NCBI RefSeq assembly: GCF_988242995.1
Contig: NZ_OZ547043.1
DNA length: 64,000 bases
Direction: 5' to 3' (one strand)
Each line of letters starts with the position of its first letter. Position 1 is the first letter of the stretch. Position numbers and translations under genes: made by a program. This document shows, piece by piece, positions 7,399 to 9,015 of this stretch. The notes under the pieces are model-generated. The model had not been told where the DNA came from and made no database searches. It saw only the letters and a program-made list of their open reading frames with translations.

Positions 7399-8145
7399 TT
7401 ACCGGGCGATGAGTGCGAACACGCCCCAGCCAAAGCATTCCCGCGCGTAGGTCACGTAGCGTTTCGGCGCGATGTTTAGTTCGGCCCTGACTTCGGCGGC
7501 GAAGTCATCGTCAGGATTCGCTTCCAGCCAGCGGCGCATGGTCAGCCATTTTGCGGCTTCATACCGGTCCCAGCCTTCCTGGTCTGCCAGTACCATTTCC
7601 ACCACGTCATAGCCGAGATCGTCGAACGCTCCGACAAGTCCTGGCAGCGTCAGGAAATCGCTTGTCGAGCTGACGCCGCAGGCCTGGGCTATTTCTTCTG
7701 TTGCTGGTAGCTGACGCCAGTAGGGTTCGCCGATAAGCATGATCCCGCCCGGTTTCAGGCTTTGCGCTAGCAGCTCCTCCGCCCCGGCAAACCCACCGGC
7801 AATCCATGTCGCGCCGACGCAGGCCGCCACGTCACATTTTTCATTTGCGACGTAACCGGCCGCATCGTTATGAATAAAATGTACGCGTTCGCTGACGCCG
7901 AGTTCTTCCGCGCGACGCTTTGCCTGCGCGGTGAAGAGCGAACTCATGTCGATGCCAGTCCCCGTAATGCCATGATCCCTGGCCCAGGTGCAGAGCATCT
8001 CGCCCGAGCCGCTGCCGAGGTCAAGAATGCGGGTGCCCGGCTTCATGCGCAGCACGCGACCCAGCGTGGCGTACTTCTCTTCGGTGAACGGGTTATGGAT
8101 GCGGTGTTCACTTTCGCTGATGGTAAAAATACGTGGGATATCCAT
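7399..8145 (-). CDS. yjhP: SAM-dependent methyltransferase
   Basis: 248-aa ORF with methyltransferase motif I (ILDLGSGSGEM). Confidence 0.8.
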   Translation of the reverse strand: MDIPRIFTISESEHRIHNPFTEEKYATLGRVLRMKPGTRILDLGSGSGEMLCTWARDHGITGTGIDMSSLFTAQAKRRAEELGVSERVHFIHNDAAGYVANEKCDVAACVGATWIAGGFAGAEELLAQSLKPGGIMLIGEPYWRQLPATEEIAQACGVSSTSDFLTLPGLVGAFDDLGYDVVEMVLADQEGWDRYEAAKWLTMRRWLEANPDDDFAAEVRAELNIAPKRYVTYARECFGWGVFALIAR

Positions 8146-8200
8146 TATTTAATTCCTGTTATTGGGTTAAGCCTTAAAAAGGACACAACAAGATTGTTAT

Positions 8201-8746
8201 TCACGTCAGTGCTCCGGTTTCATCAGGGTCTGCGCACCGGATGTGGCCGGTCAGGGTCATGGGCTGAGCGGTGAGTGATTGCATCATCCAGCAGGCTTTG
8301 TGCTCCTCCGGGATGGGATAAGGTGCCGGATAGCCTTTGTCTCCGGCACAGGGTTCGAACCCATGTCGGGGGTAATAGGTGGCGTGGCCGAGAACAAAAA
8401 CCGTCTGGCAGCCCATCAACCTCAGGTGCTCGATGCCAGTGCGTATCAACCGTCCTCCCACGCCCATCCCTTGGTATTCCGGTATGACCGCCAGGGGAGC
8501 GAGGATGTGCATCAACGGTGAATCCATTTCTCCTTTGAAGGTTGCCCGGGTAAATAAAATATGCCCGACGGCTTTGCCTTCATACCGGGCTAGCAGCGAT
8601 AACGCGGGGCGCGCGCTTTCATCCTCAAGTAAAGAGGCCACTAAATCGGCTTCTTTGCTGAAGCCAAATGCGCGGGTTTCGACTTCCCGGATATCACTGG
8701 CATCACTTTTATCTGTGATATGAAAAGTGAAGTGGTGTACTGTCAT
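8201..8746 (-). CDS. yjhQ: GNAT-family N-acetyltransferase, putative antitoxin partner of TopAI
   Basis: 181-aa ORF with GNAT acetyl-CoA motif (QGMGVGGRLI); lies 12 nt downstream of the 85-aa topAI ORF. Confidence 0.8.
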   Translation of the reverse strand: MTVHHFTFHITDKSDASDIREVETRAFGFSKEADLVASLLEDESARPALSLLARYEGKAVGHILFTRATFKGEMDSPLMHILAPLAVIPEYQGMGVGGRLIRTGIEHLRLMGCQTVFVLGHATYYPRHGFEPCAGDKGYPAPYPIPEEHKACWMMQSLTAQPMTLTGHIRCADPDETGALT

Positions 8747-8757
8747 AGAAACTCTCC

Positions 8758-9015
8758 TTAGCGATTATCGAGCTGAGCGCGAACTTTATTCAGCTCGGTG
8801 GTGTTGATTCGATAGGGCTGGCCATTGACGGACTTGATAAGTTTTTTGGTTTTGAGTTTTTTGAAGACGGCGAGCGTGCAGTCGGTCAGCAACAGCCCTT
8901 CGCGGCTGTAGCATTCAACGGAAGTGACGCGGCCTGAAGAATCGCGGACGTGCGCAATACGTCTACCTTTAGCGAGAACGTGTAAGGTATGTTGTTCCTG
9001 ACGGGATAAATTCAT
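8758..9015 (-). CDS. topAI: TopAI-family toxin (topoisomerase I inhibitor, UPF0386)
   Basis: 85-aa [28 protein letters not shown]... recognised from memory as YjhX/TopAI; operon with yjhQ and yjhP. Confidence 0.8.

Follow-up and report, generated by a model that had tools for sequence, protein, structure and literature searches.

A conserved toiL-topAI core with exchangeable downstream enzymes, and the topAI-yjhQ-yjhP operon of Escherichia coli

Introduction

The topAI, yjhQ and yjhP genes of Escherichia coli raise the question of whether a small growth-arresting protein, an acetyltransferase and a methyltransferase encoded in a row constitute a toxin-antitoxin pair with a co-opted third gene, or whether they belong to a unit of a different kind. 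Protein inhibitors of topoisomerases are known from other systems, among them T4 55.2 and Tn5 transposase and, for gyrase, CcdB and ParE. TopAI is likewise a small protein that arrests growth by blocking such an enzyme, but it is specific for topoisomerase I. It binds the topoisomerase I-DNA complex, blocks relaxation and, upon overproduction, arrests growth, and it differs from the other inhibitors in binding this complex without binding DNA itself and without an accumulation of nicked DNA (PMC4666372). The same study reported that YjhQ rescues cells from this inhibition (Yamaguchi & Inouye 2015, PMC4666372). The operon has further been described as governed by a short upstream ORF (uORF), toiL, by a hairpin that occludes the ribosome-binding site (RBS) and by Rho termination inside topAI (PMC12121999). 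The operon itself is already published, and what is added here is a comparative picture drawn from 81 TopAI loci.

Results

The window, a 64,000-nt stretch of contig NZ_OZ547043.1 (RefSeq assembly GCF_988242995.1), carries three ORFs on the minus strand from 9015 to 7399. These are topAI (also yjhX; 8758..9015), encoding the 85-aa reported topoisomerase I inhibitor, yjhQ (8201..8746), encoding a 181-aa GNAT acetyltransferase and reported TopAI antitoxin, and yjhP (7399..8145), encoding a 248-aa class I SAM-dependent methyltransferase. The gene order proposed in the sequence-only reading was borne out, as the ORFs lie exactly where it had placed them and the family matches are far beyond chance. 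Its placement of all genes on one strand was also correct (it was silent on which), while the spacing of 12 nt that it gave between topAI and yjhQ has to be corrected to 11 nt between stop codon and ATG (8757..8747). A strong Shine-Dalgarno sequence (TAAGGAG) overlaps the topAI stop codon, and judged from this arrangement topAI and yjhQ are probably translationally coupled. The gap between yjhQ and yjhP is 55 nt.

Many RefSeq E. coli chromosomes annotated with topAI, yjhQ and yjhP match positions 7000-9500 at 100% identity, the coding sequences of all three genes are identical to those of K-12 DH5a, and the encoded proteins are those of K-12, which confirms the suggested match to the reported TopAI/YjhQ pair. 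One base of the 185-nt leader differs from K-12, and the strain background is non-K-12, with 100% identity for example to strain CFS3313. The genomic neighbours sgcX and yjhR are common to the window and K-12. The window locus is the published and already known E. coli toiL-topAI-yjhQ-yjhP operon. It shares with the K-12 operon (PMC4666372, PMC12121999) the position of toiL and the palindromes ACACCGCGGTGT and TGCAcgtttTGCA upstream of topAI, with no functional difference between the two.

TopAI matched the YjhX_toxin family PF09857 over residues 1-85 of 85 (E 2.5e-37, 127.2 bits, cut-off 27) and NF010240 (E 3.9e-44, 148.6 bits, cut-off 99). Sequence searches returned no solved relatives of this protein (best match E 0.33). 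Its AF2 model (pLDDT 82) has a weak winged-helix-like fold with no significant fold relation to solved proteins. The protein is lysine/arginine-rich and carries a conserved basic patch. YjhQ matched Acetyltransf_1 (E 4.8e-12, 46.6 bits, cut-off 20.7) with an intact acetyl-CoA motif, QGMGVG (family pattern Q/R-x-x-G-x-G/A); it had no equivalog-level match in NCBIfam, and its closest solved structures, 4ZBG and 4RS2, are both uncharacterised GNATs. YjhP scored above the cut-offs of Methyltransf_31, Methyltransf_25 and Methyltransf_11 (E about 1e-10), has LDLGSGSG as SAM motif I, and is identical over 248/248 residues to PDB 1NKV, a 'hypothetical protein YjhP'; no NCBIfam model reached its cut-off for this protein.

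While the gene set had been recognised correctly from sequence, the span given for it lacked the 5' leader (9016..9186), and this leader is essential to the unit. The three ORFs alone do not make up the module, as toiL, the RBS-occluding hairpin and Rho termination inside topAI also control it. The region of transcription start is 9186..9199. The start site itself falls at about 9186 when its published upstream distance from the topAI ATG, 171 nt (PMC12121999), is mapped onto the sequence, and a -10-like hexamer, TAATAT, lies at 9199..9194. A scan for consensus promoters and terminators did not call the published promoter, so the position of the start site rests on the literature (PMC12121999); the same scan found no terminator after yjhP. 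The pyrimidine-rich 5' end of the leader, GUAAAUACCUUUCAACUCAACCC (9160..9186), is part of the reported rut site, in which mutation of four C residues relieves Rho termination (PMC12121999). It is followed by toiL (9128..9154), an eight-codon sensory uORF reading ATG CTG GAG AAT GTA ATC ATC CGA TAA (MLENVIIR*), whose ATG lies 139 nt upstream of that of topAI, in agreement with PMC12121999 in position, length and sequence.

From the last toiL codons onwards, a conserved hairpin, GAUAAUCAG ... CUGAUUAUC (9092..9132), was recovered in the minimum free energy (MFE) fold and as helix 2 of the RNAalifold consensus, with 9 pairs, 5 of them showing compensatory double changes, and 96.7% of cells paired. 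The RBS and start codon of topAI (9014..9045) are engaged in a repressive helix with the toiL coding sequence, as indicated by the MFE fold and by covariation. The MFE fold of the 192-nt leader, which pairs toiL with the topAI RBS, reaches -59.3 kcal/mol (z -3.75, 0/200 shuffles). This helix 1 joins AUGCUGG of toiL to UCAGUAU at 9020..9014, is 96.2% paired across 30 diverse sequences, and covaries by a CG to UA double change (20 versus 8 of the 30 sequences). For the whole consensus structure of 30 diverse leaders, 95.9% of cells are paired and 8 pairs show double changes, a result reached by none of 500 shuffles, while slid controls were 26-52% paired. Rfam had no family match to the leader or elsewhere in 6500-10000. 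All published regulatory sequence elements of the operon could be located in the window.

According to previous work, the hairpin opens when tetracycline, macrolides, spectinomycin or retapamulin stall ribosomes in toiL (PMC12121999), which permits translation of topAI and transcription of the whole operon (PMC12121999). Rho-dependent termination otherwise takes place within nt 10-42 of the topAI ORF (PMC12121999), corresponding to 9006..8974 of the window. Evidence for termination in untranslated topAI and its relief by antibiotics comes from reporter fusions, ChIP-qPCR and a rho R66S mutant, and mutations of the toiL start codon or Shine-Dalgarno sequence do not leave antibiotic induction intact (PMC12121999). 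Antibiotics induce topAI, yjhQ and yjhP, induction amounts to 250- to 4000-fold, yjhP is co-induced with topAI by tetracycline, and the drugs sensed by toiL fall into at least five classes with distinct mechanisms (PMC12121999). [quoted passage not shown] In contrast to these leaders, toiL acts through Rho-dependent rather than intrinsic termination, senses a range of at least five distinct drug classes, and controls a topoisomerase inhibitor with uncharacterised enzymes instead of a proven resistance determinant.

For the comparison of TopAI loci, a search with a 14-sequence TopAI alignment (a 32-sequence alignment was too divergent) yielded at least 581 matches. The best 80 of these, one genome per species and dominated by Enterobacterales, were taken as the comparison set, so that the percentages derived from it are not a census. 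The surveyed loci span 10 kb each, and a yjhQ orthologue or other antitoxin elsewhere in a genome lies outside this view. Of the loci that could be assessed (80 among the window locus and the best 80 of at least 581 matches), 79 have a toiL-like uORF 122-143 nt ahead of topAI, in the form MLENVII.. and, outside Enterobacterales, MLEIAVI... The toiL-topAI core is preserved in Gamma-, Beta- and Alphaproteobacteria together with its helices, which show covariation.

Within the best 80 of at least 581 matches plus the window locus, TopAI was intact at 85 aa in 81/81 loci, and it was 85-93% identical whichever partner followed. The genes behind it varied. An intact yjhQ orthologue followed topAI in 6 of the 81 loci (again the best 80 of at least 581 matches), a yjhP-type methyltransferase, with or without other enzymes, in 36, one of two other SAM-methyltransferase families (M2, for example in C. 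rodentium, and M3, for example in Enterobacter) in 20, and other GNATs in 9; an HD-GNAT fusion was also found in this position. In about five more loci (L027, L029, L031, L037/L041) a damaged yjhQ (frameshifted, degenerate or only a stub) stood next to an intact topAI. Counting all types, an intact enzyme partner was directly coupled to topAI in 59/81 loci (best 80 of at least 581 matches), and the junction TAA-GGAG-N8-10-ATG was conserved whichever gene followed. In 15 of the 81 loci (same best 80 of at least 581), representing 15 species, topAI had no tightly coupled ORF downstream, and such stand-alone loci, among them those of Cedecea neteri and Kosakonia, end in a terminator-like hairpin; as downstream families were recognised by tblastn with chosen representatives, an unrelated partner could escape notice in these 15.

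Based on this comparison, toiL-topAI is an invariant core, and the downstream enzymes are exchangeable cassettes inserted at a conserved junction. Across the 80 other species, yjhQ is only an occasional partner of TopAI and not its conserved one, and the two genes are not kept paired in homologous loci as a toxin and its antitoxin would be. yjhP is a commoner partner than yjhQ and probably the older one instead of a late addition. Reverse look-ups with YjhP homologues led to YjhX-MTase-YjhP operons lacking yjhQ in Pantoea and C. rodentium.

Downstream of yjhP, after 126 nt, the window contains a pseudogene of an 83-86-aa Zn_ribbon_2 protein (7012..7272, minus strand; PF12674, E 1.4e-10) with an internal TAA at codon 30. 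This gene is intact in E. coli WP5-W18-ESBL-11 and downstream of yjhP in Pantoea and other species. Next to it lies the remnant of a VOC gene (glyoxalase/bleomycin-resistance fold; 6858..6974, minus strand; PF00903, E 9.4e-6), annotated by RefSeq as a VOC pseudogene for the identical sequence. In some other species (loci L027 and L038) an intact VOC gene of 130 aa follows the zinc-ribbon gene.

Discussion

The window locus is best explained, with considerable confidence, as the published operon induced by translation stress, in which a sensor drives TopAI together with exchangeable enzymes and YjhQ is probably no antitoxin of a dedicated and obligatory kind. The conserved function would then lie in a translation-stress sensor that drives TopAI and species-specific small-molecule- or protein-modifying enzymes, and YjhQ may be one such enzyme that is also able to neutralise TopAI. 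The invariance of sensor and TopAI, the swapping of the enzymes and the rarity of yjhQ argue against a simple toxin-antitoxin reading. The view of the locus as a toxin-antitoxin pair with a co-opted third gene, to which the sequence-only reading had leaned, is reversed by the comparative data, as topAI most often has a yjhP-type methyltransferase as its neighbour (36 intact) and yjhQ only sporadically. The same result directs attention to the methyltransferase and to the substrates of the enzymes.

Tentatively, toiL-topAI could be regarded as a widely conserved stress sensor and effector that acts as a landing pad for cassettes of modifying enzymes, namely yjhQ-type and other GNATs, three SAM-methyltransferase families, an HD-GNAT fusion and VOC proteins. 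The E. coli operon would in that case be a cryptic inducible system modifying drugs, the ribosome or TopAI, and not a toxin-antitoxin pair. The antitoxin activity of YjhQ would be either a side effect of overexpression or one interchangeable way to temper TopAI.

Perhaps, although this is rather less likely than not, the operon serves inducible detoxification or resistance, with toiL sensing a ribosome-targeting natural product and the downstream enzymes modifying the compound or its target. TopAI would then be induced alongside them as a regulator or a brake on growth, and its interaction with YjhQ would be secondary. Antibiotic-sensing uORFs almost all control resistance genes, and additional functions for topAI, yjhQ and yjhP have been put forward as a speculation by the authors who described toiL (PMC12121999). 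The cassette-like swapping at a fixed junction involves GNATs, the HD-GNAT fusion, three families of class I SAM-methyltransferases and the VOC/bleomycin-resistance fold, all of them classes that modify small molecules, and the closest named relatives of the methyltransferases, among them MitM, TehB, UbiG and trans-aconitate methyltransferase, act on small molecules. However, none of the operon enzymes reached the cut-off of a known resistance family, as NCBIfam returned no resistance or named-enzyme model at cut-off for YjhQ, YjhP, M2, M3, the GNAT partner, the VOC protein or the zinc-ribbon protein, and the literature searched contained no resistance phenotype for yjhQ or yjhP. The fifteen loci that carry no enzyme further imply that TopAI has to serve some purpose by itself. 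Since the inducers are chemically unrelated, a general translation-stress sensor fits better than a specific resistance switch.

A classical type II toxin-antitoxin system, in which TopAI is purely a growth-arrest toxin, YjhQ its dedicated binding antitoxin and yjhP an unrelated passenger, appears unlikely, although the locus is listed under toxins or type II systems in Pfam, RefSeq and reviews. In AtaT-AtaR, TacT-TacA, KacT-KacA and ItaT-ItaR, the GNAT is the toxin and acetylates aminoacyl-tRNA, and a small RHH/DUF1778 protein is both antitoxin and repressor. These systems share with topAI-yjhQ a GNAT encoded beside a small protein in a two-gene unit called toxin-antitoxin, but the roles are reversed, with the small protein as the reported toxin and encoded first. 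This small partner belongs to PF09857 and has no match to DUF1778, which sets it apart from the AtaT/TacT/KacT type, and the 'antitoxin' YjhQ is a full-size enzyme, twice the size of the toxin, with its acetyl-CoA motif intact.

Under overexpression, TopAI and YjhQ do behave as toxin and antitoxin. [quoted passage not shown] An independent report likewise described the interaction of TopAI with topoisomerase I and a partial rescue by YjhQ, whose co-expression lowered TopAI-linked mortality (PMC11695965). The findings on toxicity, TopA inhibition, rescue and Rho dependence come from the papers of two laboratories and were obtained largely with overexpression and solubility-tag fusions. Adjacency and probable translational coupling, with the 11-nt gap and the Shine-Dalgarno sequence over the stop codon, would also suit a type II pair. 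Nevertheless, yjhQ is scarce as an intact orthologue and is degraded beside an intact topAI in several loci, in fifteen species topAI is intact at 85 aa although nothing is coupled to it, and the degree of TopAI conservation is the same regardless of partner. The TopAI/YjhQ complex gave no EMSA shift at the operator up to a protein:DNA ratio of 100:1 (PMC4666372), and regulation is exerted by the leader peptide instead (PMC12121999). A yjhQ knockout also exists in the Keio collection, grows, and was scored in a growth screen, but a viable knockout would be expected as topAI, if tightly repressed, would stay off.

An enzymatic, type VII-like neutralisation, in which the acetyltransferase or methyltransferase modifies and inactivates TopAI and any of the alternative enzymes thus serves as antitoxin, is improbable. 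It would fit an enzyme partner that is variable but almost always present and coupled to topAI, the conserved basic patch of TopAI and the retained acetyl-CoA-binding motif of YjhQ. The stand-alone topAI loci do not agree with it, stable binding is the explanation given for the rescue by YjhQ (PMC4666372), and no modification of TopAI has been reported. In addition, a YjhQ clone was included in a screen for lysine acetyltransferases, and YjhQ is not among the novel enzymes named in the accessible part of that report.

Equally doubtful is a degenerating piece of accessory island that retains little function in the E. coli lineage of the window. The window allele is derived and partly decayed. 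Its topAI shows 4 non-synonymous versus 3 synonymous changes, and three of these fall on positions with a conservation of at least 90% across the family. A 2-nt deletion at the 3' end of yjhQ, shared with K-12, has cost the protein its ancestral C-terminus, the reading frame there being shifted in comparison with the second E. coli allele and with other species. The surroundings contain further pseudogenes (yjhR, a GNAT fragment, the zinc-ribbon gene with its internal stop and the VOC remnant), and the locus is found in only 1775 of 5426 E. coli genomes. The ORFs of topAI, yjhQ and yjhP are all intact, however, regulation is intact and strong (PMC12121999), the window allele is the very allele shown to be toxic and to bind TopA (PMC4666372), and it is fixed in about 885 genomes. 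The comparison also calls for some caution, as the allele used in experiments (K-12/BL21) differs from the TopAI family consensus at three residues that hardly vary and is altered at the YjhQ C-terminus. The consensus form is separated from K-12 TopAI by H9R, R18G, E74G and K77N. RefSeq marks yjhQ as 'frameshifted' in the second E. coli allele, where topAI is intact, and this had been considered as a case of antitoxin loss. It was rejected upon alignment and dropped from the evidence, because it is the second allele whose YjhQ ends in the ancestral C-terminus and the K-12/window allele that bears the deletion.

A role in anti-phage defence found no support in PADLOC, which had no match for TopAI or YjhQ and, for YjhP, a match restricted to the portion of mad2 that is generic to methyltransferases (E 5.4e-17).

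Phenotypes of yjhP and yjhQ were found only as parts of screens in the literature searched. Among four candidate methyltransferases for mRNA m6A, yjhP was judged, like the others, not to be solely responsible, and in a knockout screen for 23S m6A2030 that included yjhP only the yhiR knockout stood out. The yjhQ knockout was a hit in a screen for resistance to a lacritin peptide.

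Operon organization and function

The topAI-yjhQ-yjhP locus is already known, and its identity as an operon and its regulation are settled. The three open reading frames of the earlier sequence-only reading were borne out with exact coordinates, all on the minus strand: topAI (9015..8758, 85 aa), yjhQ (8746..8201, 181 aa) and yjhP (8145..7399, 248 aa), so that its observation of a three-gene locus was confirmed. The topAI stop codon overlaps the Shine-Dalgarno sequence TAAGGAG and lies 11 nt before the yjhQ ATG, and a gap of 55 nt separates yjhQ from yjhP. Pfam PF09857 (YjhX_toxin) covers TopAI end to end (E = 2.5e-37), YjhQ matches Acetyltransf_1 (E = 4.8e-12) as a GNAT and carries the acetyl-CoA motif QGMGVG, and YjhP is a class I SAM methyltransferase whose sequence equals that of 1NKV, a structural-genomics entry titled "hypothetical protein YjhP", at 248/248 residues. 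These family assignments are secure. The PADLOC model mad2 matches YjhP (E = 5.4e-17) in the methyltransferase core only, which we read as generic similarity of the methyltransferase domain; TopAI and YjhQ had no PADLOC match. Many RefSeq E. coli chromosomes match the DNA at 7000-9500 with 100% identity and have the genes annotated as topAI, yjhQ and yjhP, and all three coding sequences are identical to those of K-12 DH5a. The locus is accessory (1775/5426 complete E. coli genomes), with sgcX on one side and the yjhR pseudogene on the other.

Overproduction of TopAI (YjhX) stops growth, co-expression of YjhQ rescues the cells, and the tagged proteins pull each other down (Yamaguchi & Inouye, PMC4666372). 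TopAI binds topoisomerase I, either as its N-terminal domain or as full-length TopA on DNA, and blocks relaxation; topoisomerases III and IV are not inhibited (PMC4666372). The link to this reported pair in the sequence-only reading therefore holds, and its question of whether TopAI is toxic and neutralized by YjhQ already has a positive answer, at least where the proteins are overexpressed. The three genes form a single operon with a 171-nt leader, and Rho terminates untranslated topAI within nt 10-42 of its reading frame (Baniulyte & Wade, PMC12121999). Ribosomes are stalled on the leader ORF toiL by tetracycline, spectinomycin, retapamulin, erythromycin and tylosin, and these drugs raise expression of the operon 250- to 4000-fold (PMC12121999).

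Conservation of the toiL leader

The part of the unit that was overlooked earlier, toiL, is present in the window at 9154..9128 on the minus strand (ATG CTG GAG AAT GTA ATC ATC CGA TAA, encoding MLENVIIR), exactly 139 nt before the topAI ATG. In the fold of the 192-nt leader (-59.3 kcal/mol, z = -3.75), which none of 200 shuffles equaled, toiL codons pair with the Shine-Dalgarno and start region of topAI; Rfam holds no model for the topAI leader.

A search profile of 14 TopAI homologues yielded 80 loci for comparison, one per species and the best 80 of at least 581 matches, to which the E. coli locus was added. Most belong to Enterobacterales, and the sample also takes in Acinetobacter, Pseudomonas, Stenotrophomonas, Janthinobacterium, Chromobacterium, Dechloromonas and Uliginosibacterium as well as MAGs of Rhodocyclales and Alphaproteobacteria. 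A toiL-like uORF lies 122-143 nt upstream of topAI in 79 of the 80 loci having upstream sequence, the sole exception being Pseudomonas salomonii, and reads MLENVIIR in most Enterobacterales and MLEIAVI[RWG] or MLESVAIR elsewhere. Covariation was assessed with RNAalifold on an alignment of 30 diverse leaders. One helix joins the toiL start (AUGCUGG) to the topAI start region, and a second forms a hairpin starting in the last toiL codons. Across these 30 leaders 95.9% of the cells in the consensus were paired, and double compensatory changes occurred at 8/18 pairs (e.g. CG in 20 vs UA in 8 sequences); none of 500 shuffles attained these values, and slid controls reached only 26-52% pairing. The published mechanism thus gains independent support, reaching well past Enterobacterales.

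Variable genes downstream of topAI

Across the 81 loci (the best 80 of at least 581 matches plus E. coli), the topAI ORF is always intact with exactly 85 codons, and the genes 3' of it vary. Most often yjhP alone follows (24 loci), and other arrangements are a 237-aa SAM methyltransferase, M3 (11 loci), a 295-aa SAM methyltransferase, M2, and then yjhP (5 loci), an HD-domain-GNAT fusion in Acinetobacter and Pseudomonas (5 loci), other GNATs (4 loci), combinations containing yjhQ (a few loci), decayed remnants (7 loci) and no coupled gene at all (15 loci). The alternative partners proved to be class I methyltransferases, GNATs and an HD_3+GNAT fusion, and none of them reached the cut-off of a named NCBIfam family. 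Whichever enzyme gene lies downstream, the junction "TAA GGAG N8-10 ATG" is constant; stand-alone loci have a terminator-like hairpin after the topAI stop codon. In this best-match sample yjhP is intact in 36/81 loci, and an intact yjhQ orthologue was found in only 6/81 (E. coli, a Providencia MAG, two Klebsiella species, Hafnia and a Serratia species), with one further orthologue interrupted by a contig end. In Citrobacter amalonaticus, Kluyvera genomosp. 3 and Serratia rubidaea an intact topAI adjoins a frameshifted or degenerate yjhQ, and in Raoultella yjhQ is cut down to a stub of ~130 nt. Reverse look-ups for the YjhP homologues of Pantoea ananatis and Citrobacter rodentium each led to a YjhX-M2-YjhP operon that lacks yjhQ.

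Based on this comparison, the invariant unit is most probably TopAI under the control of a translation-stress sensor that consists of toiL, its hairpin and Rho, and the enzymes 3' of topAI are probably exchangeable cassettes placed at a translationally coupled junction. YjhQ would then be one cassette enzyme, able to neutralize TopAI yet not an obligatory partner, which does not contradict the published rescue experiment. The 15 loci without an enzyme show that TopAI also serves a purpose independent of such partners. The earlier interpretation is thus partly supported: its TopAI/YjhQ rescue is published, but yjhP, which it took as a perhaps co-opted third gene, is the commonest neighbor, so that "co-opted third gene" fits yjhQ better.

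A resistance- or detoxification-like role of the operon enzymes, on which the eLife authors also speculated, is a tentative alternative; no sequence evidence ties any operon enzyme to a known resistance family. A canonical type II toxin-antitoxin module is unlikely, because the gene pairing is not conserved across the 81 loci (the best 80 of at least 581 matches plus E. coli), the supposed antitoxin is an enzyme of full size, a strain with yjhQ knocked out is in use, and the complex gave no detected binding to the palindromes upstream as operator (PMC4666372). Both palindromes, ACACCGCGGTGT and TGCAcgtttTGCA, are found in the window at ~9045-9075. Enzymatic neutralization of TopAI and functional decay in this E. 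coli lineage are both improbable. The useful new part is therefore the comparative argument that the conserved module is toiL-topAI and not topAI-yjhQ, and the methyltransferase is the gene worth experimental attention.

In several species (L028, L038, L057 and L064) M2 and YjhP read as one in-frame ORF of 543-562 aa 3' of topAI, which may reflect either a real fusion or a stop codon that is missing; elsewhere the two are separate ORFs that overlap or abut. A 3.2-kb contig labeled MAG: Collinsella sp. (L002) contains a toiL-topAI-yjhQ unit 95% identical to that of E. coli, most likely through contamination of this actinobacterial bin by an enterobacterial contig.

Alleles in E. coli

The window allele was compared with a second common E. 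coli allele, taken in full from one genome (strain WP5-W18-ESBL-11, L083), and with all other species. Relative to these, topAI of the window and K-12 shows 4 non-synonymous vs 3 synonymous changes; the protein carries R9H, G18R, G74E and N77K, and conservation within the family is 90% or more at R9, G18 and G74. In yjhQ, a 2-nt deletion at ~8230-8240 (minus strand) replaces the ancestral C-terminus ...IQCAQALMKPEHWRE with ...IRCADPDETGALT, altering the last ~13 residues. The deleted form occurs in ~885 E. coli genomes vs ~624 for the ancestral form, the yjhQ 3' end of L083 recurring in the latter at 99% identity or more, including in Nissle 1917. On this sequence comparison the window/K-12 allele is the derived one; the experimentally characterized proteins are therefore derived versions, and the TopAI of all published experiments, departing at conserved residues, is an atypical variant. 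RefSeq flags the ancestral yjhQ as "frameshifted" solely because K-12 serves as the reference. Synonymous differences between the two alleles number 51 in 249 codons of yjhP (window 7399-8145 vs L083 3558-4304), 8 in 166 of yjhQ and 3 in 86 of topAI, an abrupt shift suggesting that a recombination breakpoint separates yjhQ from yjhP.

Flanking remnants and a second locus

A Zn_ribbon_2 (PF12674) pseudogene lies 126 nt downstream of yjhP (7012-7272, minus strand, TAA at codon 30). Other E. coli have an intact copy, and the gene comes after yjhP in Pantoea, Citrobacter, Hafnia and Lelliottia, so that it may be a fourth gene of the operon. Beyond it is the remnant of a VOC gene (glyoxalase/bleomycin-resistance fold; 6858-6974, minus strand), whose intact 130-aa orthologues in several species adjoin the zinc-ribbon gene or shortly precede the topAI leader. 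A 43-aa ORF (9506-9637, minus strand), a hypothetical protein in the annotation, is a GNAT-domain fragment whose match to Acetyltransf_3 stays under the cut-off (E = 7e-4); it appears to be a further acetyltransferase remnant, close upstream of the topAI promoter. The truncated RefSeq pseudogene yjhR (9977-10993, plus strand), divergent from the topAI promoter, retains a 338-aa ORF with AAA_12 helicase C-terminal and PLD-like nuclease domains.

A second YjhX locus, ~82% identical, is present in some E. coli, for example CFS3273 (L082), where it lies beside the lsr operon and where an IS21 element has truncated the class I SAM methyltransferase gene that comes after the toxin-family gene. The 80-90% identity band for the YjhX locus comprises ~108-112 genomes.
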